DNA of 64,000 nt from Clostridiales bacterium (lineage in GTDB: Bacteria > Bacillota > Clostridia > Lachnospirales > WRAX01): the NCBI GenBank assembly GCA_031265685.1, contig JAISCI010000028.1, positions 31-64,030 of the forward strand. Direction: 5' to 3'. Positions 3,166-61,780 of this stretch are shown in pieces. The translations under genes and the position numbers were made by a program. Positions within the stretch are counted from its first letter, which is position 1. Each line of letters begins with the position of its first letter. The notes under the pieces are model-generated. The model searched no databases, was not told the origin of the DNA, and was given only the letters and a program-made list of their open reading frames with translations.

Positions 3166-3243
3166 AAGAAGATGGTTTGATGAATTTTGCGTGAATCGAA
3201 GCAAAATTCAGATGTTGTCTTCGACAACATCAAACGTCGGTCA
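3166..3243 (-). repeat. G-type palindromic element, short copy G2 (end2 to end1)
   Basis: AAGAAGATGGTTTGATGAATTTTGC-GTGAATCGAA-GCAAAATTCAGATGTTGTCTTCGACAACATCAAACGTCGGTC. This is the reverse complement of the G1 termini with a single X hairpin as core. Confidence 0.8.
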
Positions 3244-3523
3244 AAGGCGTCGCCGTAAAACGTCCTTATGAACAATAACCGACAGCAACCGCAGATTTTA
3301 GCAATACAGACATTCTACAACTTCCGCGGAATCGGATTTTCAGCGGCACGCGTACTTCTTACTCGAATAATCGGCAGCAAAGTTAGCTTAAACCCGCGCT
3401 TTGTTATTCGGGCGGGTGATTTTGGGGTTGACATTTACAAAATTACCTCATTCCGCCGATATTATGACGCTTAGCGGCTATAATTACCGGGGTTTTTGGA
3501 GCGGTTACGGGATAGACATAAAC

Positions 3524-5269: not shown

Positions 5270-5514
5270 TAAACAAAAACGCCGTGTACTCCGAGAGTAC
5301 GCAAGTTTTTGGCTGACGATGAAGAAGATGGCTTGATGAATTTTGCGTGACAGAATTTTGCGTGAATCGAAGCATTATCGTGTGGTTCAAACGATAATGC
5401 GATGCAAAATTCATTCAAGCAAAATTCAGATGTTGTATTCCACAACATCAAACGTCGATCAACGACGGGAAATCAGCCGAAAAGACGCCGATTCCATCTA
5501 TGAATACAGGTTCT
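5270..5514. repeat. F-type element, copy F', carrying a nested G-type insertion
   Basis: It shares AACGCCGyGTACTCmGAGAGTACGCAAGTTTTTGGCTGACG and TCAACGACGGGAAATCAGCCGAAAAGACGyCGATTCCATCTATGAATACAGGTTCT with 61680-61780. Those two halves are separated here by about 143 bp. Confidence 0.8.
5318..5460 (-). repeat. G-type palindromic element, copy G3, inserted inside F'
   Basis: GATGAAGAAGATGGCTTGAT...X-6-X-10-Y loop Y-3-X-6-X...CAGATGTTGTATTCCACAACATCAAACGTCG. It is near-identical to the reverse complement of G1. Confidence 0.8.
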
Positions 5515-5758
5515 GAATAGCTGGTCTCAATTATATTGAGCGGTCGATTTTTCGATTATAACGCGCGCCCGTTTTCAGTGATTACAAGAATTCTTTTGCG
5601 GGGGCGGAACTTCTCGCTGATTTTTTGCGTGCGGGTGTTTTTTTCATTTATATTGCCGCCGGGCTCCGAAAGGCGTTCAAGCGAATTTCCATCACGCGAA
5701 AACATGAAAATCGTGTCCGCGCCTGGGAACGGGATAGGCATAAAATCAAATCCCCGCA

Positions 5759-5786: not shown

Positions 5787-5812
5787 AAGCTGGAGAATGT
5801 CGGAAGGGGGTG

Positions 5813-7132
5813 ATGTTATTGGCTAAAGTTTACACTGATCAAAATGTGTTCAACGCCTTCATGGACAGAATGGAGTATATATTTTCCAAGTTTGATCACG
5901 TCGTGGTCGCTTTTTCCGGAGGCAAGGATTCCGGCCTGATGCTGGAACTGGTTAACTTATATTACGCGAGGCGCCGCCCCGACGCCAAAGTCTCCGTATA
6001 CCACATCGACTATGAGGGCAATTATCAGTATACCATCGACTACGTATCGCGCTGCATGGGTAAATATCCTTATTTTGACTACTATCACCTTTGTATGCCG
6101 GTTTCGGCTTCATGCGGCGTATCCATGTATCAATCCACATGGATGCCCTGGAATCCGGACGAAAAGGACATCTGGCTCAAGGAACGCCCGCCGGGCGCGA
6201 TAACGCTGGAAAACCACGGCTTCGACTTCTTCAAGGTCGGTATGTCGGACTATGTTTTTCAGACAAAATTCGGCAAGTGGCTTCACAAACGCCGCGGTGC
6301 TAAAAGAACAGCCGTCCTTGTCGGCATACGCGCGCAGGAAAGCCTCAACCGCTATCACGCAGTGACCCGCGACAGCGCCTACCGGATGTTCGGCAAGATC
6401 GCCTACAGCACGCGCGTTTACACGGGTATCTACAATTTTTATCCGCTGTACGACTGGCTGGTCGAGGACATATGGACGGCCAACGCTAAGTTCGGGTTCG
6501 ATTACAATAAACTATACGACCTGTATTATTTGGCGGGCATACCGGTCGTGGAGATGCGCGTAGCCAACCCCTTCCATGAATGCGGAGTGGAAGCGCTCAA
6601 GCTGTTCCGCGCGATCGAGCCGAATACATGGAGCCGGCTGGTCGGACGCGTGAACGGCGCGAATTTCGGCGCGATTTACGGAGGCACGAAAGCGGTCGGC
6701 TACAAGGATATTTCCCTTCCGAAGGGCCACACGTGGAAAACCTACACGGAATTCCTCCTGAACACGCTGCCGTCGCGCACGCGGGAAATATATCGGCGCA
6801 AGTTTGAGACGTCTCTGCGTTACTGGCTTGATAAAGGCGGCGCTCTGCCCGTCAGGGTTGTGAACGAGCTTCGCAAGACGGATATTGTTTTCGAGCGGTT
6901 GGGCAAACCTACCGGAAAACGGAAATACAGGAGCGACCACGAGGTGGTCCGTTTCGCCGAATACCCCGACAGCGTCGATCTGCGGAACTTCCGGTCGCTG
7001 CCCAGTTATAAACGGATGTGCGTGACGATTATGAAGAACGACACGTCATGCCGTTATATGGGGTTCAGCCAGACCAAAGACGAACTGCAGAAAGGAAAGG
7101 AAGCGATGGCCGTATGGGAGAGCCTTATGTAA
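5813..7132 (+). CDS. PAPS-reductase-family ATP pyrophosphatase with a DUF3440-like C-terminal region (IbrA-like)
   Basis: The N-terminus carries the PP-loop VVVAFSGGKDSGLMLELV. The protein is about 440 aa, and its downstream ParB-like partner overlaps it by 19 nt. The exact start is uncertain (GTG 5810, ATG 5813 or TTG 5819). Confidence 0.75.
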   Translation: MLLAKVYTDQNVFNAFMDRMEYIFSKFDHVVVAFSGGKDSGLMLELVNLYYARRRPDAKVSVYHIDYEGNYQYTIDYVSRCMGKYPYFDYYHLCMPVSASCGVSMYQSTWMPWNPDEKDIWLKERPPGAITLENHGFDFFKVGMSDYVFQTKFGKWLHKRRGAKRTAVLVGIRAQESLNRYHAVTRDSAYRMFGKIAYSTRVYTGIYNFYPLYDWLVEDIWTANAKFGFDYNKLYDLYYLAGIPVVEMRVANPFHECGVEALKLFRAIEPNTWSRLVGRVNGANFGAIYGGTKAVGYKDISLPKGHTWKTYTEFLLNTLPSRTREIYRRKFETSLRYWLDKGGALPVRVVNELRKTDIVFERLGKPTGKRKYRSDHEVVRFAEYPDSVDLRNFRSLPSYKRMCVTIMKNDTSCRYMGFSQTKDELQKGKEAMAVWESLM

Positions 7133-7656
7133 GCCCGGTATACAGCGTCATACGCGTTCCGATCGGGAAAATCCAGGCGAACGCGCACAACCCGAACCGC
7201 GTGCCGCCGCCGGAGATGAGGCTGCTCATCAAGTCCATTCTGGAGGACGGCTACACAATGCCTATCGTCTGCTATTATCTGGCGGACGCCGACCGCTATG
7301 AGATTGTCGATGGGTTTCACCGGTATCAGGCCATGAGGCTTTGTCCCGAGATTGCCGAGCGGGAGGGAGAATGCCTGCCCGTGTCCGTGATTGACAAGCC
7401 GCTGACGAGCCGCATAGCCAGCACGATCCGTCATAACCGCGCGCGCGGCGTTCATTCCATTGATCTGATGGTGGACATCGTGGCGAAGCTCGCCGAGGCT
7501 GGGCGGAGCGACGCGTGGATTATGGACAATATCGGCATGGATTCCGACGAGCTGCTGCGGCTCAAGCAGATAAGCGGGCTGGCCTCGCTGTTCGCGGACA
7601 GGGAGTTTTCGCCGGCCTGGGAAAGCGACGCCGTCGCCGGGACAGTCGGAACCTAG
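7114..7656 (+). CDS. ParB-like nuclease domain protein (IbrB-like)
   Basis: Translation from ATG 7114 gives MGEPYVSPVYSVIRVPIGKIQANAHNPNRV...EIVDGFHRYQAM...IRHNRARG, which contains the ParB/Srx-type motifs. It overlaps the 3' end of the upstream gene. Confidence 0.75.
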   Translation: MGEPYVSPVYSVIRVPIGKIQANAHNPNRVPPPEMRLLIKSILEDGYTMPIVCYYLADADRYEIVDGFHRYQAMRLCPEIAEREGECLPVSVIDKPLTSRIASTIRHNRARGVHSIDLMVDIVAKLAEAGRSDAWIMDNIGMDSDELLRLKQISGLASLFADREFSPAWESDAVAGTVGT

Positions 7657-7746
7657 AGCCGAACACTTGGGGCGCCGCCCCGCACCCCGCCCGCTTTCCA
7701 TCCCGAAAGCGGGGCAAAGAACTTTCATTTATGAAGGAGCCGTTAT

Positions 7747-8280
7747 ATGGAAATTAAACTGATTGAGCAAAAGCCGCTGACTACTTTAGCTGTGCGTGAA
7801 ACCGCCTCCGGCGCGGAATTGCCGCGGGTTATCAGCGCGGGCTTCGCGCGGGTGTACGATTATATCGTCAAAACCGGCGCTCAAATCATCGACGCGCCCT
7901 ACGCCGCCTATATAAACATGGCCGGCGACAGCTGGGATATTGAAATCGGATTCCCCGTCGCTCGGGAAACGCCGGAAAACGGTTCGGAAGTTTGCGTGAA
8001 CCAGGCAAACTCCCCAGACACGAACCATCCAGAACAAATGTCAACCTTGATTCCGAAACAGCATGAGATTTTCCCGAGCGTAATCCCGGCGGGACGAGCC
8101 GCCGCCGCGCTTCACAAGGGTTCATACGCCGGTCTGGAAGCGGTTTACGGCGAGCTGTTCAAATGGGTCGGGGATAACGGCCTTAAACAGTCCGGAGCGC
8201 CGTATGACCGCTATCTCAACGACCCGTCGGTTACGCCGGAGGACGAGCTGCTGACTAACGTCGTTATACCGGTAATCTAA
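7747..8280 (+). CDS. GyrI-like small-molecule-binding domain protein with an internal ~26-aa insertion
   Basis: MEIKLIEQKPLTTLAVRE...EIGFPV...IPAGRAAAALHKGSY...YDRYLNDP...VVIPV matches the GyrI-like / AraC effector-binding fold pattern. A GGAG RBS is present. Confidence 0.7.
   Translation: MEIKLIEQKPLTTLAVRETASGAELPRVISAGFARVYDYIVKTGAQIIDAPYAAYINMAGDSWDIEIGFPVARETPENGSEVCVNQANSPDTNHPEQMSTLIPKQHEIFPSVIPAGRAAAALHKGSYAGLEAVYGELFKWVGDNGLKQSGAPYDRYLNDPSVTPEDELLTNVVIPVI
7987..8073. repeat. Hairpin-module sequence embedded in-frame in the GyrI-like CDS
   Basis: 7987-8013 (GAAGTTTGCGTGAACCAGGCAAACTCC) matches 19451-19477 (GAATTTTGCGTGAACCAAGCAAAATTC) at 23 of 27 positions, and the G/C changes fall at paired positions. 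The rest of the insert is degenerate. Confidence 0.6.
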
Positions 8281-8468
8281 TTCCACTTAGAATTTGCGCC
8301 GGATATTTTTTCGAGCTTGCGTGTCCGAATTTTGCTTAGTTCACACAAAATTCTCATCGGAATTTTGCTTGGTTCGCACAAAATTCTCATCGGAATTTTG
8401 CTTGGTTCACGCAAAATTCTTAGGGGCGGCCGAAAATATTCGGCGTCCTTTAGAGTGGAATTAGTATA
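8278..8468 (+). mobile_element. TIR-bounded non-coding element, copy A (MITE-like, no ORF)
   Basis: Left end: (ATC)TAATTCCACTTAGAATTTGCGCCGGATATTTTTT. Right end: CCGAAAATATTCGGCGTCCTTTAGAGTGGAATTAGTAT. Homologous ends occur at 59764-59931 and, inverted, at 18181-18415. It lies between two convergent genes. Confidence 0.75.
8327..8420 (+). repeat. Tandem array of a 33-bp hairpin unit, about 2.9 copies, inside element A
   Basis: The unit GAATTTTGCTTrGTTCrCrCAAAATTCTCATCG starts at 8327, 8360 and 8393. Confidence 0.9.
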
Positions 8469-8482
8469 AATAGGCTGCGCGG

Positions 8483-11044: not shown

Positions 11045-11157
11045 CATACTAATCCCATTTAGATTTATGGATAAAAATTTTTCAAGCGTCAGCGCGTTCG
11101 CGCGGCTTTAAGCGCGAACTGAAAAATTTTTATCCGTCTTTTGAAATGGGATTAGTA
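11045..11157 (+). mobile_element. TIR-bounded element, sister subfamily, copy D
   Basis: ATACTAATCCCATTTAGATTTATGGATAAAAATTTTT ... AAAAATTTTTATCCGTCTTTTGAAATGGGATTAGTAT. The 15-bp termini are perfect inverted repeats. The right arm supplies the last codons of the EamA ORF. Confidence 0.75.
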
Positions 11158-12089
11158 TTAAGGCAATGGCCGCCCCAGAATACGCCCGCCGTCACCAGCA
11201 GCGAGCCGGCGACCACGGGAAGCGTGATCTTGGCGCCCAGGATAAGCGCCGACGCCAGCACGGAGATTATGGGCAGCATATTCGCGATCGCGACGACAAG
11301 GACGACGTTTCCCCTTCTCATCGACATATTCCAGAAGATCGTCGCGCACAGCGACGATAACAGGATCTGGAACGCCAGCTCTGCGCCGGATTCGATCGGG
11401 TTCAGGATCGAATTGCCTAAGGATTCGCGGCTGAACCCGCGCGAATACAGCTCGCTGCCTGTTTCCGGGCTGAACGTCAGGGCAAGCGCCATAAGCGCCC
11501 CCGCCGCCAGCATAAAATAGCCTACGCCGTCGAAATCCGAGCGGACATGTTCCATATATTTACGCGTCAGTATCGAGAACAGCGCCCACGCCGCGGCGGA
11601 AGCCAGAGCGATCAGCGCGGACGGCAGTATGAAGCCGTCGGAGAGGATGTACGCGGCGTCCTGCCCGTAGCCCCCGCCCCACACGGTTATCGCGGCAGCG
11701 CCCGACGCGCTCAGGGCGAAACTGCCCCAAATCCAGCGGGACGCCTTCTTCTTCAGGACAAGCGGAGTCAGCAGCATCGCGAAGACCGGCCACATGAACT
11801 TTATTACTCCGACGGCCAGAGCTTGCTGGCGCGTCTGCGCGACGGCGGTGGACACGTATGACGAGAGCACGTAAAAGACGTACAGCGCGCCGCAGACAAA
11901 GACGTACCGCCTGGGAAGGGCGCGCATATCCCCCCAGCTCCCGTGACGCAAGCGGGACGCCGCGCAGATCAGCGCGCCGGACAGCAGGTTGACCAGCGCG
12001 CCGGAGGTAAACAGTCCAAGACGTTCCGCCAGCGTGCGGGTAAACGCCCCGCTGACACCCCAAATCACGACGGCCGCCGCGCCCAGCAA
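11130..12089 (-). CDS. EamA/DMT-superfamily transporter
   Basis: 319 aa with about 10 hydrophobic segments and a two-fold EamA-like organisation. The start is TTG. The C-terminal NTNPISKDG is encoded by element D. Confidence 0.7.
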   Translation of the reverse strand: MLGAAAVVIWGVSGAFTRTLAERLGLFTSGALVNLLSGALICAASRLRHGSWGDMRALPRRYVFVCGALYVFYVLSSYVSTAVAQTRQQALAVGVIKFMWPVFAMLLTPLVLKKKASRWIWGSFALSASGAAAITVWGGGYGQDAAYILSDGFILPSALIALASAAAWALFSILTRKYMEHVRSDFDGVGYFMLAAGALMALALTFSPETGSELYSRGFSRESLGNSILNPIESGAELAFQILLSSLCATIFWNMSMRRGNVVLVVAIANMLPIISVLASALILGAKITLPVVAGSLLVTAGVFWGGHCLNTNPISKDG

Positions 12090-12124: not shown

Positions 12125-12174
12125 AGACCAATCCCATTTTCAAGGACGGATAAAAATCTAAATGGGATTAGTAT
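12125..12174 (-). mobile_element. Minimal copy E of the D-type element, termini only, inverted relative to D
   Basis: AGACCAATCCCATTTTCAAGGACGGATAAAAATCTAAATGGGATTAGTAT equals the reverse complements of the D right arm and D left arm joined at GGATAAAAAT. Confidence 0.7.
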
Positions 12175-13154
12175 CACGGGCAATCGCGCAGGGTCTGGAT
12201 CAGCAGATCCATAAATCCCGGGAAGTCCAGCCGCAGCGCGGCTTCGGCGTTGGGGCGCTCCCCGCGGAAGCCCATGGTCGGGCTTTCGGTTACGTCCGTG
12301 CCCGGCGTTTCGCAGCGCAGATGACGGTAGTCGCAGACGGTCATGCCGCGCGTGAACTCGCCTTTCAGCTCCACGGTTATGTGCATGGGAGCGGCGGTGA
12401 TAAGCTCGGGACGGATCAGCCACGCGACGGCGCAGGCGTCGTGCAGGTTGGCGGCCGGAAGCGAGGCCGCTTCTTTGGACGTACCCAAAAAGAAGTTCAG
12501 CAGATCGACGGCGAACTTGGCCGTTCGGGTCGGAATCTTCGCTATCTCATCGACGCGCTCCCGCGATACGGCGCACTGCCGCGTGAGGTTAACGCCCGAC
12601 ATTTTAATCGGCACGCCGGAGTTAAACACGCGGTACGCGGCCTCCGGATCGACGAAGATATTAAACTCCGCCGCCGGCGTCCAGTTGCCGAAAGTCACCG
12701 AGCCGCCCATGAGACAGATCTCACGTATCCTCCCCGCGATCTCGGGAGCGCGGTTAAGCGCCGCGGCTATATTCGTCAGCGGGCCGGTGGGCACAAGCGT
12801 AACGCCGTCGACGCTTTTCACGGTTTCAACTATAAAGTCCACGGCGTGTTCCTTTTGCGGCGCGGTAACGGGATCGGGCAGCACTGGGCCGTCCAGCCCG
12901 CTTTCCCCGTGGAACTGCGGCGCGGTCACAAGCTCGGCCACCATCGGGCGCGAATGCCCCGCGTACACGGGTATATCGGTCCGGTCTATAACCTCCAGCG
13001 TTTTGAGCGCGTTTTTCGTTACGTTCCCGAGACAGCAATTGCCGCCGATCGTCGTAACGCCCAGCACATCCAGATGGCTCGCGGCGAGTATAATGGCGAA
13101 AGCGTCGTCGTGCCCGGGGTCGCAATCCAGTATTATTTTACGTCTGGCCTCCAT
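12174..13154 (-). CDS. Inosine/uridine-preferring nucleoside hydrolase family protein
   Basis: Translation from ATG 13154 (AGGAG RBS) gives MEARRKIILDCDPGHDDAFAIILA, the N-terminal DxDxxxDD aspartate cluster. Length is about 326 aa. Confidence 0.85.
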   Translation of the reverse strand: MEARRKIILDCDPGHDDAFAIILAASHLDVLGVTTIGGNCCLGNVTKNALKTLEVIDRTDIPVYAGHSRPMVAELVTAPQFHGESGLDGPVLPDPVTAPQKEHAVDFIVETVKSVDGVTLVPTGPLTNIAAALNRAPEIAGRIREICLMGGSVTFGNWTPAAEFNIFVDPEAAYRVFNSGVPIKMSGVNLTRQCAVSRERVDEIAKIPTRTAKFAVDLLNFFLGTSKEAASLPAANLHDACAVAWLIRPELITAAPMHITVELKGEFTRGMTVCDYRHLRCETPGTDVTESPTMGFRGERPNAEAALRLDFPGFMDLLIQTLRDCP

Positions 13155-18180: not shown

Positions 18181-18415
18181 ATACTAATTCCATTCTATAA
18201 GGACGCCAAATATTTTTTCGGTCCGCTCCTGGAATTGTGCATCGCATTATCGAGTGACAGAAGTTTGCGCGAATCGAAGCATTATCGTGTGGTTCAAACG
18301 ATAATGCGATGCAAACTTCGTCCAAGCGATAACGCTTCGAACCAAGCAAAATTCAGAGCCGCGCGGACGCACGCGCTTAAAGAATATCCGGCACAAATCT
18401 GAATGGAATTAGTAT
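18181..18415 (-). mobile_element. TIR-bounded non-coding element, copy C (inverted relative to A and B) with a four-stem X/Y core
   Basis: ATACTAATTCCATTCTATAAGGACGCCAAATATTTTTTCGG ... AAGAATATCCGGCACAAATCTGAATGGAATTAGTAT. The core at 18232-18354 is a nested palindrome. Confidence 0.8.
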
Positions 18416-18421
18416 CAGCGA

Positions 18422-19422: not shown

Positions 19423-19512
19423 GAATTTTGCATCGCATTATCGCTTGATGGAATTTTGCGTGAACCAAGCAAAATTCGTCCACGCGATAATGCTTCGAAC
19501 CGCGCAAAATTC
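19423..19512. repeat. Three-stem nested palindrome (X/Y word family)
   Basis: GAATTTTGC-ATC-GCATTATCG-7-GAATTTTGC-GTGAACCAA-GCAAAATTC-7-CGATAATGC-TTCGAACCGC-GCAAAATTC. Confidence 0.85.
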
Positions 19513-30628: not shown

Positions 30629-30686
30629 GTAGCGGTTGGCGGATCTTAATTATAATGGGCGGCGGATTTTTCAGTTGACAAATACA
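30629..30686. repeat. Copy 2 of the ~58-bp conserved sequence (see 29-86)
   Basis: GTAGCGGTTGGCGGATCTTAATTATAATGGGCGGCGGATTTTTCAGTTGACAAATACA, located 22 nt beyond the stop codon of the FrhB-like gene. Confidence 0.6.
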
Positions 30687-30707: not shown

Positions 30708-31897
30708 TCAGGCGTTTCCCTTCCTTAGCGCCGAGCGCGCCTTCCAGAGAGCGTACCGCGCCCAATTCACAGCCTCCTTCGGCACAAACCGCCGGATCAT
30801 ATTGGTTGCAGACTTTCCCGCCGTCTTTCTGTAAAGCTCGCCGAACGGCTCGCTGTCAAGCCCCGCGAAGAAATCCCCGCGCCGCTTATTTGTGCCGCTC
30901 GAAGCGTATATGCCGTGGTTGAAGGCGCAAGCTTCCCCAACGCTCGAAGCGATTGTATCGCAAAACGGCGCCAATCGCCCAAACAGCTCCTCGCCTTTGG
31001 CGGTATTTACCATGACGAGCGATACGCCCCGACCATCGTCGAAACGCCCGAGCATCTGCCTGCCGCCCCAGAAATCCCCTATGGTCACGTCCGCGCCCGA
31101 GCGAAATCCTTTGGCCGCGCAGTCGCGGCACGACGGCCGCAGGAACAGATTTACCATGAAGCCCAGCATGTACGGCGAATCGTCGTCCCGCTCCGTTTTG
31201 CCGTCAACAACCAGAAGCGTGTCGAGCGCGGTCTGCCAGCGCTTCCGCTTATGCCGGAACGCGAGGCCAGTCGGCGCGGAACCAAAACGCCGCGCCGCGT
31301 CTTTGATGTATTTGTCAAGAACTTTCTGGCTGGGCACGCCATGACATACAAAATCGACAATAGTCAAGCGGTCTCGGTTCACGCTGAATTCCGCCAAAAA
31401 GCGACGCAACCCCAGTGCCTGGCACGGCGTACCAGTGAAGAGGACGCGCTCGCCCCTGTCAAGAAATTCCTTGCAACGGACGTAACTGTCTCCGATGTCG
31501 GACTGTACATATTTGGAACCGCGAAAGCGTGCGTACGATCCATCCGTGACGAAGGAGTGCCGGCAGCGCATTCCGCGCATCTCGCTGCCAAATATTGCCC
31601 CCCCCCTATCATAAAGTCCTCAGCGATCAGCGAGAAAACGCCGCCCGAGGTGGACGCGCCGCGAATGGCGTCGTCTCGGGCTTTAACGCCCCAGACCGAG
31701 ATAGGGCCGCCGCCAAGGGCCAGCGACGCGTACTGGCAAACCCTCTCGCAGATCCCGCACTCGGAGCACCTGTCTTTTGCCGCGACAGGATACGCAAAGC
31801 CCTCTCCGTCGCTTACCATGGAAATGGCCCCATGCGGACACGCTGCCTGGCAGGCAGAGCATCCGCAGCAAGCCCCTTTATTAATTATATCAATCAT
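30708..31897 (-). pseudogene. Coenzyme F420 hydrogenase/dehydrogenase beta-subunit-like protein (N-terminal 2x[4Fe-4S] ferredoxin), interrupted by a frameshift in a G9 tract
   Basis: The N-terminal frame reads MIDIINKGACCGCSACQAACPHGAI...CSECGICERVC...TSGGVFSLIAEDFMIGGG. The C-terminal frame (30708-31580) resumes with ...FRGSKYVQSD...FTGTPCQ...VCHGVPS. One extra G would join them into about 396 aa. Confidence 0.8.
31598..31606 (-). repeat. Homopolymeric tract: C9 on the plus strand, G9 on the coding strand
   Basis: Read directly as ATTG-CCCCCCCCC-TATC. It sits exactly at the point where the frame changes. Confidence 0.95.
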
Positions 31898-33143
31898 CAG
31901 CCAACGCCCTTTCGAGATAATCGGCGGAGAACCGGCGCAACTCGCCCAGCGCGGCGTTGGACGCCGAGAAATCCACTTCCGCGGCGCCCGGCGTCAGCCA
32001 CTTAGACCAATCCCCGGACAGATCCGCCATGCGGTCCATCAGCCCGGTCTGCGACAGCAGCGAGGACGCCCGCTCGTTACGGTAACACGCGACCGCATAG
32101 AACGGGATATTGAAGTTGACGGCGAAAGCCGTGCCATGGAACGAATTGGTCACGACGAACCGCGCGCGGGCCAACAGCTCCACGAACCGCCTGGGATCGG
32201 CCGTGGATTCGTAGCGCGTGGATGGTGAAAGATCCGCCAGAAACCGCTGGTCGATGATAACGGGTGTAAGGCCCAGTATCTTCGCCAGCTTTTTGGCGAA
32301 GCCGTATACGCGCACACGGTTCGACAGCGCGTACACGACAAGCGTATCATCTCGGGATTTCGCCTGATTCACGCAAAATTCCCTTTCGTCCTCAATACCG
32401 AGCGAGGAGAGCCATTCCCCTCGCGTGAGCATCAGCGTCGGGTCAAGCGCGCAGACTGCCTCAATCCCCAGCGCCTCGCGGACTTTCCCGACATGCTGCG
32501 CTTCCCGCACGGAAACGGCGGAGTACGCCCGCAAATAACCCGCGATCCTCTCATTGACGGCTCGGTCGGCGAATTTATAGTTACCGAACGAAGCGGAATA
32601 CGCGACGCGCCTGACACCCTCGGGTAGGAATCCAAGGAAATAAACCGGCGTCACGCCGAAATACATCGGATTCCATATTTGGTCGCTGCCGCTTACCGCC
32701 GCGTCATAACCTGAAAATCCCTCGGCGACGCTTTCCTCCGCATACTCCTGTGTATAGGCTATGTACGTATCCCAAAACCTACGGTAATTCGCGATAAGGC
32801 GACGGCGCTTTCCGTAGTTGACAATATCGGAAACCATCCCGTAGACGCGGTTCATCAGTTCCGGCAACAGCTCGGACTTCTCGAGCTTAGCCGCTCCCCC
32901 GCCGATCTTTTTGCGCGAAAATACGGATCTCACTGTAGAAAAAGCTATCACTATGAATCCGACCCGCACCGGCCTAACGGTAGCGGCGACCATGCCGTGC
33001 CGGTAATCCAAGCACTTTACGTCAAAGCGGCGGCTCAGGCACGCGAACAGCGCGAACTCCTGCAGACTGCCGCCGTAGTTGACGTTACGGCTGAACGTTA
33101 CTAACAGTATCTTCCTCGCGCCCGGCTTCGGATTGTCTGACAA
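31890..33143 (-). CDS. Polysaccharide pyruvyl transferase family protein (CsaB/WcaK-like)
   Basis: ILLVTFSRNVNYGGSLQEFAL...GSDQIWNP...VVTNSFHGTAFAVNFNIPF matches the PS_pyruv_trans pattern. The start is TTG and overlaps the upstream gene. Confidence 0.8.
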   Translation of the reverse strand: MSDNPKPGARKILLVTFSRNVNYGGSLQEFALFACLSRRFDVKCLDYRHGMVAATVRPVRVGFIVIAFSTVRSVFSRKKIGGGAAKLEKSELLPELMNRVYGMVSDIVNYGKRRRLIANYRRFWDTYIAYTQEYAEESVAEGFSGYDAAVSGSDQIWNPMYFGVTPVYFLGFLPEGVRRVAYSASFGNYKFADRAVNERIAGYLRAYSAVSVREAQHVGKVREALGIEAVCALDPTLMLTRGEWLSSLGIEDEREFCVNQAKSRDDTLVVYALSNRVRVYGFAKKLAKILGLTPVIIDQRFLADLSPSTRYESTADPRRFVELLARARFVVTNSFHGTAFAVNFNIPFYAVACYRNERASSLLSQTGLMDRMADLSGDWSKWLTPGAAEVDFSASNAALGELRRFSADYLERALADD

Positions 33144-44383: not shown

Positions 44384-44653
44384 GTGGCGCACAGGCTGGC
44401 CGCTATCGCCGTGAGTGAGGCCAGGGCGGCGCTGGACGGAGCCGGCGCGCTGAATGCGCCAATTCTACCCGGCGTCTATTCGCTGTCGCCGGTTGCGTCT
44501 GCCCGGCGTGTTCATCCGACGGAAAAGCCGCTGATGAATTTTGCGGGTTCAGGCAAAATTCAGGCGCTTATGCGCGAACTGGTAAAGATTGCTGGCAACC
44601 GCTTTGTACGCGTACGAGGTTTTGACGATTCAAACGCGCCAGAGCGTTGTTGA
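44384..44653 (+). pseudogene. Fragment of an N4/N6 DNA methyltransferase (HPTxKP motif) carrying a hairpin-module insertion
   Basis: ...ARRVHPTEKPL[MNFAGSGKIQ]ALMRELVKIAGN.... The bracketed residues are encoded by GAATTTTGC-GGGTTCAG-GCAAAATTC (44536-44561). The flanking catalytic regions are absent or degenerate. Confidence 0.5.
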
Positions 44654-53483: not shown

Positions 53484-55568
53484 TCACGCTTCGTTTTCGG
53501 AATCTTGCGGATTCACACAAAACTCCTCCGATTCGTACTCGGATTCCCGCTCGGCGTCATAAGCTTCGCGTTCCGCGTCGGCAATGGCTCGATCCGCCAG
53601 CTTCTTCGAGAGACTCAGTTTTTTCTTCTCTACGTCAACGTTCGTAACCTGCACCCGCACGAACTGACCAAGCTCCAACTCATCCTCGGGCTTTTCAATG
53701 CGATGCTCGGCGATCTGGGATATGTGGACAAGGCCATCAATGCCATCGGGAAATTCAATGAAAGCGCCGAAGGGCACGAGACGCACTACTTTGCCCTCGA
53801 CAATAGACCCGACCGGATACCGTTCCACGGCGGAATACCACGGATTGTTCTCCTCCGTGCGCAAAGACAGCGAAATCTTTTCCTTATCGCGGTTGATGTT
53901 AATGACCGTAGCCGTAACCTCGTCGCCCTCGCTCAACGCGTCCGAGACGTGTTTGACACGGTTCCACCCCAACTCGGAGATGTGGATAAGCCCGTCTACG
54001 CCGCCCAGATCGACAAACGCGCCGAAATCCGCGATACGGCTCACCTTCCCCGTCACAACGGCGCCAATGTCGAGCGCGTTGAACACAAGCTCTTTCTTCT
54101 CGGCGGCCTGCCTGCGCGCAAGTTCACGCCGGCCCGCGATGACGCGGCGCTTGGATTTATCCACCTCAAGGATATTGAAATCCAGCTCCTGACCGACATA
54201 GGCTCTCGTGTCCTCTACATAACGCCCGGCAATCTGGCTCGAGGGCACAAAAGCCCGAACCTCGTTGATAACCGCGATAAGCCCGCCTTTGACCGCGTCT
54301 ACGACTTTTCCCGTAAAGACACTCTTCTCCGCCACGGCCGCCTCAAACTCATCGAGACTCTTCTGGCTGTCAACGCGCTTCTTCGAGAGCAGGACGTTTC
54401 CCTCGCCGTCGTTGACCCTGATGACAAAGACATCTATCTCGTCGCCGGGTTTAACATAGTCGGCGGGATTCTTGTTCGGATCATCGGAAAACTCAGAGCG
54501 TTGTATCAGCCCGTCGGACTTGAAACCGATATTGACCGAAACCTCGCCGGTCGGGGTGACGGAAATAACCGTACCTCGGATGTAATCGCCTGTATGTAAA
54601 GTGACCAGCGATTCGTTCAGCATCTGCTCAAACTCCGCCTCAGGCACGACGTCAACGCTCGCCTGGGCAATTTCGACATCCGGCGCGCCGCTGTCTTCGG
54701 CGCCTTGTCCGTTGGGGTTCTCAAATTCGCTCATCAGTCTGACAGCCTCCTTTATTATCGCCGGGGGCGTGGAAGCCCCCGCTGTGATACCAATTATATC
54801 CGGGCGGCAAACCGCCGCCCATTCGCGTATCCCGGAAAGCGCCTGCCATATATCCTCTCCAAAGAATACCCGATCCGAGCGTTCCGCGCAAACCTCGGCG
54901 AGCTTCCGCGCGTTTGAGCTGTCGGCGTCGCCAAGTACGACCATAGCGCCGCATTCGGCGGACAACCGCGCGGCTTCGTCCTGCCGCGCGCGCGTAGCGC
55001 CGCATATTGTCTCGCGGCACTCGACAGCAACACCCCTCGCGGACAAAACTTCGGCTATTTCCGCGTACGTGCCGTGTCTCAGCGTGGATTGCGCGAGCAG
55101 TACGCATTCGCCGACATCGGACAGATCGCTCGCCCGCGCTTCATCCGCCGAACCAAAGACGACAGCGCGGCCAGCCCAGCCGATAATCCCGATTACCTCG
55201 GGATGACTCGCGTCCCCGGCGACGATAACCGTCTTGCCGGACACCGAAGCTTCTCGCGCCAATCGTTGGATACCCGCGACGAACGGACATGTGCAGTCAA
55301 TAATATCGACGCCGCGTTTACGCAAATCTTCGTAAACCCGAGGCGGAACGCCGTGACTGCGTATCGCGACGCGCGACCCAACCGGAACGTCCGCCGCCGT
55401 CCGAGCGACACGAACGCCCAATCCCGCCAACCCTTCCGTGACGCGTCTGTTGTGGATGACGCTGCCCAACGTATATATCTTGCCTTTACGCGCTTCATTA
55501 TATACACGCCGCACGGCGGAGCGGACGCCGCCGCAGAAACCGGCGGACATCGCCAGCGAAACTTTCAC
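53484..55568 (-). CDS. ispH: Fusion of 4-hydroxy-3-methylbut-2-enyl diphosphate reductase with 30S ribosomal protein S1
   Basis: The N-terminal IspH part ([17 protein letters not shown]) is followed by four S1 repeats (e.g. [64 protein letters not shown]). Confidence 0.9.
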
Positions 55569-59763: not shown

Positions 59764-59931
59764 ATACTAACGCCACTTAGATTTGCGCCGAATATTTTTT
59801 TGAGCTTGCGTGTCCGCGCGGATCTGAATTTTGCCTGGAAGAATTTTTCTTGATCACGCAACATTCTATCGCGCAAAATTCCAGGCGCGGACCGAAAAAA
59901 TATTCGGCGTCCTTTAGAGTGGAATTAGTAT
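59764..59931 (+). mobile_element. TIR-bounded non-coding element, copy B
   Basis: ATACTAACGCCACTTAGATTTGCGCCGAATATTTTTTTGAGCTTGCGTGTCCG ... GACCGAAAAAATATTCGGCGTCCTTTAGAGTGGAATTAGTAT, with an internal X hairpin at 59826-59881. It lies between two co-directional genes. Confidence 0.8.
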
Positions 59932-60449
59932 CAGATGTCGGCGGGGCGGTAGATCCCGTCGCCGTATACTGCGATTATGGAAGCGTCAACTATATCGCCG
60001 CTGATCGTCAGCGCCGCGTAGGTTGGCGCGGGGAAACCTCTCGGCCGGGACAGGCTGCCCGGATTGACCGTCAGGAGACCGCCGCCGCGCTCGATCACCG
60101 GGAAATGCGTATGACCGAAGAGACAGACGTCCGCGCCGCGCTCCAAGGCGGCGTAATACAGCCGTGTCGTGTCGCCCGCCGATACGCCGTACCGATGTCC
60201 GTGCGTCATAAAAACGACATGCCCGTCCGCCGGGATGGCAAGCCAGTCCCGATACGCCGGATCGCTCCCGTCACAGTTGCCGCGAACGGCGAACACCTCC
60301 GACCCCGGCGCGGCGGACGCCGCCGCCAGCGAATCCGGCGCGCAGTCCCCCAAGTGCAGAATCATATCGAACCCGCCCCGCGCGGCGCGGATTATCTTCA
60401 CCAGCGACGACGTTTCGCGGTGCGTGTCCGATACCACGAGAATTCTCAC
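59931..60449 (-). CDS. YfcE/MJ0936-family metallophosphoesterase
   Basis: The start is GTG. MRILVVSDTHRE...LHLGDC...GNCD...HGH...GHTH. Confidence 0.85.
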   Translation of the reverse strand: MRILVVSDTHRETSSLVKIIRAARGGFDMILHLGDCAPDSLAAASAAPGSEVFAVRGNCDGSDPAYRDWLAIPADGHVVFMTHGHRYGVSAGDTTRLYYAALERGADVCLFGHTHFPVIERGGGLLTVNPGSLSRPRGFPAPTYAALTISGDIVDASIIAVYGDGIYRPADI

Positions 60450-61614: not shown

Positions 61615-61780
61615 AGAACCTGTATTCATTAGTGGAATCGGCGGATTTTCGCGATGATTTCCTGCCGGGCGAGGAAGCGGAAAACGCCGCGTACTCAGAG
61701 AGTACGCAAGTTTTTGGCTGACGGTCAACGACGGGAAATCAGCCGAAAAGACGTCGATTCCATCTATGAATACAGGTTCT
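61615..61780. mobile_element. F-type inverted-repeat element, the uninterrupted copy
   Basis: Left arm AGAACCTGTATTCATTAGTGGAATCGGCGGATTTTCG and right arm CGAAAAGACGTCGATTCCATCTATGAATACAGGTTCT are ~37-nt imperfect inverted repeats. There is an internal 8-bp hairpin, GCGTACTC-AGA-GAGTACGC. The right arm encodes the last 6 codons of the DUF4330 gene. Confidence 0.75.

Follow-up and report, generated by a model that had tools for sequence, protein, structure and literature searches.

The 64,000-nt window analyzed here (positions 31 to 64,030 of contig JAISCI010000028.1, Clostridiales bacterium), which is chromosomal DNA of an uncultured, spore-forming member of the Clostridia represented by a metagenome-assembled genome (MAG), carries on its forward strand an intact GyrI-like open reading frame (ORF) at 7747-8280. 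It encodes a stand-alone effector-binding protein of the CTR107 type, 177 residues long, and contains an 81-nt in-frame insertion at 7984-8064 of the same strand, corresponding to residues S80 to H106. The insertion has two parts. Its leading part is a 27-nt palindromic repeat unit at 7987-8013 (forward strand), encoding (S)EVCVNQANS(P), of which a 33-nt version, 7984-8016, includes TCG and CCA flanks common with a tandem array downstream. The remaining 51 nt, at 8014-8064, encode a hydrophilic, proline-rich peptide and show no significant similarity to any repeat cluster of the window. An inverted-repeat search found a perfect 11-bp inverted repeat around the insertion, with its left arm, CGCTCGGGAAA, at 7959-7969 and its right arm, TTTCCCGAGCG, at 8070-8080. 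[quoted passage not shown]

What marks the 81 nt as an insertion? The ORF matches the Pfam profile PF06445 over its whole length (E 2e-15), taking in positions 1-154 of the 155 in the profile, and this full-length match, together with a duplicated beta-alpha-beta-beta fold, places the protein in the GyrI-like, CTR107-type group. Among 5.8 billion proteins searched, 119 homologs other than the protein itself were recovered; nearly all are 149 to 157 residues long, and the nearest are only about 48 to 55% identical. When the protein is aligned with 19 homologs (20 sequences), the 27-column block SEVCVNQANSPDTNHPEQMSTLIPKQH (S80-H106) is unique to the window protein. In a MAFFT alignment of 120 hits, the invariant anchors P70 and G116 are 18 residues apart in 119/119 homologs versus 45 in the window protein, and because this spacing is constant, the insertion amounts to exactly 27 codons. 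A preliminary description of this DNA, made from the sequence alone, had estimated about 26 extra residues, held that the reading frame is preserved, and named a segment of equivalent length in unrelated taxa as the mark of an ancestral loop. The count is now 27, the length is divisible by three with the phase used free of stops, and no homolog has a segment of such length. The segment is therefore an insertion specific to this lineage, and it falls where the homologs show no variation in length. An independent Logan assembly (run SRR14710922) is identical to the window over 6652-8373, its only break falling within the tandem array downstream; with the locus reproduced base for base, the insert is no artefact of scaffolding or assembly. 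In base composition, the insert is not significantly different from the rest of the gene, with a GC content of 48% vs 58% and a GC content at third codon positions of 56% vs 67%.

The predicted structure agrees with this picture. An AlphaFold2 model built with the 20-sequence alignment has a mean predicted local distance difference test score (pLDDT) of 87 and a predicted template modeling score of 0.79. Residues 1-71 and 109-177 mostly score above 90, residues 72-108 are modeled as coil, and the pLDDT of residues 79-99 falls below 50. The insert lies between the strands at 62-71 and 109-113, within the link that joins the two beta-alpha-beta-beta halves. The surface loop that had been suspected from the sequence thus appears in the model as a low-confidence loop between two confidently predicted halves of the fold. 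A Foldseek search with the model led to CTR107 (5kax/9rtm), a ligand binder of the stand-alone GyrI-like type, at 28-30% identity, with TM scores normalized to the target of 0.84-0.87, and more distantly to SbmC/GyrI and the effector domains of BmrR and EcmrR; 1jyh was also among the matches. Outside the insert, the model superposes on CTR107 at a TM of 0.86. The model thus shows a complete GyrI-like core to which the extra residues have been added as a loop.

Where might the leading part of the insert have come from? The window is rich in copies of an AT-rich palindrome with the consensus GAATTTTGC-N9-GCAAAATTC, or in fuller form (TCG)GAATTTTGC-GTGAACCAA-GCAAAATTC. Its arm, GCAAAATTC or GAATTTTGC, occurs 31 times in the 64 kb, in 12 clusters. 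A covariance model (R1), trained on nine noncoding copies (seven from the window and two from a related contig, L009, described below) with all coding copies excluded, likewise detects 12 loci in the window at E<0.01. The reference noncoding copy, recognized by its hairpin, the arm clusters and the covariance model, lies at 19451-19477 on the forward strand. The 27 nt in the gene, GAAGTTTGCGTGAACCAGGCAAACTCC, differ from it at four positions (23/27 identical), exactly as the preliminary description had it. Two of these differences, T4>G and A24>C, fall on stem partners, again as described earlier, and the in-gene hairpin still folds. The likeness goes beyond chance by three measures. (i) A 19-nt core, allowing up to three mismatches, is found eight times in the window vs 0.03 expected, and the in-gene copy has a single mismatch. 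(ii) The covariance model scores the in-gene copy at 24.3 bits, a window-wide E of about 0.009. (iii) By blastn, the in-gene unit matches another copy, at 32350-32382, with an E of 1.5e-4 (28/33 identical). The TCG that precedes the in-gene unit and the CCA/TCA that follows it are common with the 33-nt tandem unit (family D1), which makes 33 nt, or 11 codons, the recognizable module. On these sequence comparisons, the leading 27-33 nt of the insert are confirmed as a genuine copy of the dispersed palindrome.

The palindrome takes many forms: it occurs as lone hairpins, in tandem arrays of 33-nt units, nested within other palindromes, and inside MITE-like composites. Its stem is 9-12 bp long, and as DNA the copies fold with energies of -6.7 to -9.3 kcal/mol and z-scores of -2.7 to -5.5. 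Among copies, the arms are conserved and the loops variable, and in this one 64-kb window all but three or four copies are intergenic. Longer palindromes combine the units with a second box, CGATAATGC; an example is the palindrome of about 90 nt at 19423-19512, in which the reference copy is nested. The composite at 8277-8475, recognized through the repeat families and a sister copy, has imperfect terminal inverted repeats of about 30 bp, CTAATTCCACT... and ...AGTGGAATTAG (the right end is also given as ...AGTGGAATTAGTAT), and holds, at 8327-8420, 2.8 tandem copies of a 33-nt unit of the palindrome. The sister copy, near 59.8 kb (about 59765-59935), likewise has internal palindrome units. With one composite terminus lying over its stop codon in addition to the insert, the GyrI-like gene has been hit twice by the repeat family.

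The GyrI-like gene is not the only coding sequence to be entered. The covariance model detects a second in-frame copy at 32355-32381, on the reverse strand, within an ORF (31890-33143, reverse strand) that resembles polysaccharide pyruvyl-transferases (PF04230). This copy scores 30.6 bits (E 4e-4) and encodes EFCVNQAKS; it shares both loop orientation and phase with the copy that encodes EVCVNQANS in the GyrI-like protein. It contributes about nine extra residues to the W244-Y271 loop, which at 26 residues is the longest among 140 sequences (14-24 residues, with a mode of 17-18, in the 139 homologs). The two coding copies share further features: in both, the last codon is TCC (Ser) vs the family's TTC (Phe), and the stem pair 2-26 is disrupted. 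A marginal, diverged copy (20.3 bits, E 0.067 by the covariance model) lies at 53497-53528 on the reverse strand, in the C-terminal tail of an IspH-S1 fusion ORF (53484-55568, reverse strand; Pfam LYTB+S1). It begins in the phase of the GyrI copy and underlies the gene's 3' end, so that the last 13 or so residues and the stop codon may be derived from the repeat. The three copies in intact genes share one of six possible combinations of orientation and phase, for which the chance is about 0.03 in what is a small sample.

Another copy, at 44536-44561 on the forward strand, is found in a probable DNA-methylase remnant, a short ORF (44384-44653, forward strand) with an HPTEKP motif. As identified by the covariance model and by translation, HPTEKPL[MNFAGSGKIQ]ALMRELV, the hairpin encodes 10 residues here in another phase. 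The match of the remnant to PF01555 is weak (E 0.064) and appears only once these 10 residues are deleted. The region around the remnant, 43.6-46.4 kb, is poor in genes and rich in repeats.

Does the palindrome occur elsewhere? The pattern GAATTTTGC-N8-10-GCAAAATTC was found at no fewer than 92 loci in genome contigs, at least 92 being the lower bound and nearly all of them chance occurrences; among the matches listed, only L009 (JAITDK010000037.1, from the Oscillospiraceae MAG Nm470_bin129) is related. A loop-specific 21-mer gave six unrelated chance matches in metagenome contigs, scans of viral contigs for the palindrome gave none, as did blastn against plasmids and phages, and no Rfam family matched anywhere in the window. 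In L009, at 2775-2875, two units of 30-34 nt, 39 nt apart, break a phage-type phosphoadenosine phosphosulfate (PAPS)-reductase gene after GCIGCP. The units differ only in an inverted central triplet (AAC/GTT); unit 1 carries an in-frame TGA, and unit 2 shifts the frame. With both units removed, the product is colinear with four phage homologs, and the intervening 13 codons line up with a segment of 11-13 residues that these homologs have themselves, including the invariant E of an E-F motif. The intervening codons are therefore native, and the units are two separate insertions, in a gene now dead. The other phase, AAT-TTT-GCN, is used by unit 1 and by the copy in the methylase remnant, neither of which lies in an intact gene. 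Together, the coding copies span the spectrum expected of a selfish palindrome, namely, tolerated loops, terminal remodeling and pseudogenization.

Certain other identities for these sequences were considered and rejected. A CRISPR-like array is ruled out by "spacers" of only 6 nt, and an intein or intron by the 81-nt size and the open frame. Tandem arrays and gene disruption speak against operator sites.

Taken as a whole, the GyrI-like gene very probably gained an 81-nt in-frame insertion led by a dispersed palindrome akin to the repetitive extragenic palindromes (REPs) and the Rickettsia palindromic elements (RPEs), which has been tolerated in a loop. How would such a state arise? The palindrome would be nonautonomous selfish DNA of the REP/RPE kind, spreading either by means of a hairpin-recognizing transposase whose gene lies elsewhere or through switches of template at hairpins. 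Most insertions into coding sequence would be purged. The copy in the GyrI-like gene would have survived because the gene stayed intact and its protein simply gained a disordered surface loop of 27 residues. Later drift, together with selection acting on the peptide, may have changed the unit (Phe>Val, Phe>Ser), and one stem pair would have changed with compensation.

Several points weigh against this reading. The part of the insert that can be assigned to the repeat is only 27-33 of 81 nt, about one third. The preliminary description had treated the insert as a palindromic module, which holds for the leading 27-33 nt and fails for the other 51 nt, which match nothing. Against all repeat clusters of the window and L009, this 51-nt tail reaches a Smith-Waterman score of 13 vs 11.0±1.7 for shuffled sequence, which is not significant; it does not match the reverse complement of the adjacent array flank (p 0.07) or the sister copy (p 0.38); blastn with a word size of 7 found no match for it in the window; and the covariance model detected no second, degenerate unit in the insert. 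The earlier remark that the tail resembles the unit junction of the array is correct insofar as the tail 12-mer GCATGAGATTTT lies at an edit distance of 2 from that junction, but about 1% of random 12-mers come as close, so that the likeness is not significant alone and suggestive at best. The search for orthologs lacking the insert in related strains, proposed as a check, found no empty-site ortholog in the databases, where the nearest homologs are those already mentioned at about 48-55% identity. No transposase domain was detected in the 40 ORFs of the window that were scanned, and beyond the window the palindrome occurs, among the matches listed, on only one contig of 5.4 kb, L009. That the 27 inserted residues are translated is assumed.

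The junctions and the bracketing inverted repeat belong to the same balance. At the insertion site, the closest homolog (P0002), used for the codon comparison, reads ...GGT|GAA ATC TAT CCG, and the window reads GGT|TCG GAA GTT T... on the left and CAT|GAG ATT TTC CCG on the right. Both junctions resemble the ancestral GAA-ATY-T. The boundaries are therefore ambiguous by a few nucleotides, left GAAGTTT and right GAGATTT both being similar to the homolog's GAAATCT. Two explanations of this likeness are available: a 7-nt duplication of the target that is imperfect, or microhomology to the repeat arm GAATTTT. GAAGTTT and GAGATTT are identical at only 5/7 positions, which is no clean target-site duplication, and the perfect 11-bp inverted repeat around the insert is not accounted for by simple insertion; both count against the insertion of a palindrome as well. 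The two arms of this inverted repeat fall in codons that have counterparts in the homologs and so are not obviously derived from the insert. The DNA of the closest homolog has no equivalent of the inverted repeat. In the predicted RNA, the arms pair in both the minimum-free-energy and the centroid structures. The window has just seven perfect inverted repeats that reach 11 bp or more and are spaced by 60-140 nt; only the one in the GyrI-like gene is inside a coding region, and the other six are intergenic, several within recognized repeat elements. Without the insert, the gene would have an 11-bp stem closing a loop of 18 nt, and it is into this loop that the insertion falls. Possible readings are a preference of the element for hairpin loops, in line with the nesting of other copies in larger palindromes, quasi-palindrome correction after insertion, or the looping out of the insert by a stem in the RNA.

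Could the hairpin have come from next door? A local templated event, in which the hairpin was copied in inverted form from the array 260-430 nt downstream by template switching during replication or by gene conversion, seems unlikely to us, although much at the locus fits it. Microhomology of the gene's GAAATTT (Glu-Ile) with the repeat arm GAATTTT could have primed the event. The array at 8327-8420 is adjacent, with its units in the loop orientation opposite to that of the in-gene copy, TCG precedes the unit in both gene and array (family D1), both junctions of the insert resemble the homolog's GGT GAA ATC T, the tail 12-mer is two edits from the array junction, and quasi-palindrome correction gives rise to perfect flanking inverted repeats of this kind. 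However, the best nucleotide match to the in-gene unit is the distant coding copy at 32350-32382 rather than the adjacent array, the 51-nt tail fails to match the array flank, and the insertions in the pyruvyl transferase and in L009 occurred without an adjacent array.

The hairpin might instead be retained in the gene as a cis element, either a protein site on the GAATTTTGC arms or a stem-loop in the mRNA, which we regard as improbable. Conservation of the arms over variable loops would suit such a role, as would the T>G and A>C changes that keep a stem pair and the presence of the hairpin in the centroid RNA fold. But a single pair with compensation is no more than an anecdote, both coding copies have lost pair 2-26, and the family is without an Rfam match. 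Tandem arrays, nested palindromes and the disruption of the L009 gene are the behavior of a selfish repeat and not of operators.

Looping out at the RNA level, whereby the 11-bp bracketing stem would bypass or remove the insert to leave a mature protein without it, is very improbable indeed. The stem is perfect, it appears in both RNA folds, and it is the sole example of its class in a coding region of the 64 kb; yet the insert is open and in frame, so that a bypass is not required, and the arms encode the conserved flanks A72-E74 and F109-S111, where translation would unwind the stem. Matched take-off and landing codons are absent, as is a stop codon, the fold has a z-score of only -1.9, and the copy in the pyruvyl transferase has no such flanking stem. 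Chance resemblance in an ordinary, lineage-specific expansion of the loop, to which the unremarkable GC content of the insert would be congenial, is effectively refuted by the tests run, that is, by the repeat-match statistics (19-mer count, blastn and covariance model), the same nine-codon module in a second, unrelated gene, and the invariant length of the site in all 119 homologs.

How does the palindrome compare with known systems? Intragenic REPs are palindromes of 20-40 bp, present singly or as dimers, that encode up to 20-30 residues, sometimes twice per ORF, and the case has been made that they are neutral when they fall in linkers or loops (Di Nocera et al. 2013, PMC3733652). The window palindrome resembles REPs in being a short, imperfect palindrome able to form a stem-loop (a 27-nt unit) and in its many dispersed copies, mostly extragenic and arranged singly, as dimers or in clusters, as far as one 64-kb window reveals. 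Like intragenic REPs, it is occasionally found inside ORFs, where it lengthens the protein. It differs in having no consistent GTAG/CGTC tag at the base of its stem: GTAG is found in no copy, and CGTC (via ...TTCGTCC) in only 2/14. Its stem is AT-rich, whereas typical REP stems are G-C-rich. The super-families tagged with GTAG/CGTC are predominantly found in Proteobacteria (PMC3733652), unlike the Clostridia MAG considered here. In addition, no REP-associated tyrosine transposase (RAYT) was seen in the window.

The likeness to RPEs was proposed in the preliminary description. As outlined in PMC10969869 after Ogata et al. 2000/2002, RPEs are palindromic selfish repeats of about 100-150 bp, confined to Rickettsia and inserted in frame in unrelated genes at sites compatible with the fold of the protein. 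To the extent of that outline, the window palindrome is comparable: it is in frame in unrelated, apparently functional genes (GyrI-like and pyruvyl transferase), encodes a recurring peptide, and occupies fold-compatible positions. In contrast to RPEs, the window unit measures 27-33 nt, and its host is a spore-forming member of the Clostridia, not an obligate intracellular bacterium with a reduced genome. Judged by unit size and host, membership in the RPE family is implausible, and the palindrome would be better described as an RPE analogue. The same-phase copy in the pyruvyl transferase and the gene-interrupting copies in L009 back the earlier proposal as such an analogy. Intragenic REPs are the closer precedent.

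Bacterial MITEs are a further point of reference, as some make translational fusions, including intragenic ERIC and the Coxiella QMITE1/2 (PMC10969869, PMC5896051). Like these, the elements of the window are small, nonautonomous repeats that overlap or extend ORFs, and the stop codon of the GyrI-like gene is supplied or overlapped by the composite (8277-8475), much as QMITEs do at the 3' ends of Coxiella genes (PMC5896051). A MITE is a noncoding unit of 50-500 bp with terminal inverted repeats and a flanking target-site duplication; the 81-nt insert lacks terminal inverted repeats that belong to it, and its 7-nt duplication is imperfect; the 11-bp inverted repeat is outside it, in sequence that can be aligned with homologs. 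The composite does have terminal inverted repeats and is an insertion separate from the 81-nt insert.

The window contains other repeats and genes besides. A second family with terminal inverted repeats, whose ends are GGGATTAGTAT/GGAATTAGTAT (D11/D12), is present at 8431-8470, 12138-12177, 18379-18418 and 59895-59934, and a 15-bp perfect inverted repeat, 11046-11060 / 11144-11158, is grouped with it. These repeats suggest that there are several related MITE-like elements in the intergenic regions. Other dispersed repeats, of 50-60 nt and not obviously palindromic, form pairs that are 86-97% identical (29-86, 5510-5567 and 30629-30686; 5456-5514 vs 61722-61780; 3199-3249 vs 5417-5467), and some of them adjoin palindrome clusters to give longer mosaic units. 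Directly upstream of the GyrI-like gene, at 5810-7656, is an IbrA-like (PAPS_reduct + DUF3440) and ParB-like (IbrB-like) pair with zero overlap, and palindrome clusters lie on either side of this block, at 5.3 kb and 8.3 kb. Pfam scans identified this pair among the neighboring genes, along with IspF, a germination protease and Coat F, as well as Fe-ADH, GntR, PlsX, a sigma factor and IspH-S1. Proteins of the window are represented at NCBI by MDR1209072.1 and MDR1209099.1.

What do these insertions mean for the biology of the family? In-frame palindromic insertions have been documented mostly in Rickettsia and in a few, mainly proteobacterial, REP families. The palindrome family described here is new, being untagged, AT-rich and in a new lineage; the kind of phenomenon is already known. 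A more ambitious reading is that the palindrome has colonized coding genes across a gut Clostridia/Oscillospiraceae lineage on a scale like that of the RPEs, with a preferred phase (GAA-TTT-TGC, or E-F/V-C-V-N) and perhaps a preference for hairpin loops. We hold this reading only tentatively and think it rather doubtful. Scaled up from 64 kb, two to four intragenic copies would come to dozens per genome, and the possible loop preference is suggested by the 11-bp inverted repeat at the GyrI insert and by the copies nested in larger palindromes. If true, it would provide a tractable, nonrickettsial system, in a genome that is not reduced, for the study of palindromic selfish DNA making new protein loops.

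In-frame palindromes show selfish DNA lengthening protein loops while the gene survives. The 64-kb window holds two clean in-frame cases, in unrelated genes and in the same phase, a C-terminal candidate, and a copy in a gene remnant; to these, L009 from a relative adds a gene killed by two units. For annotation, the implication is that unusually long loops in small domains of otherwise invariant length can derive from repeats. If the density seen here holds genome-wide, the lineage would offer a snapshot of the life cycle of such an element, from neutral loop through C-terminal remodeling to pseudogenization.

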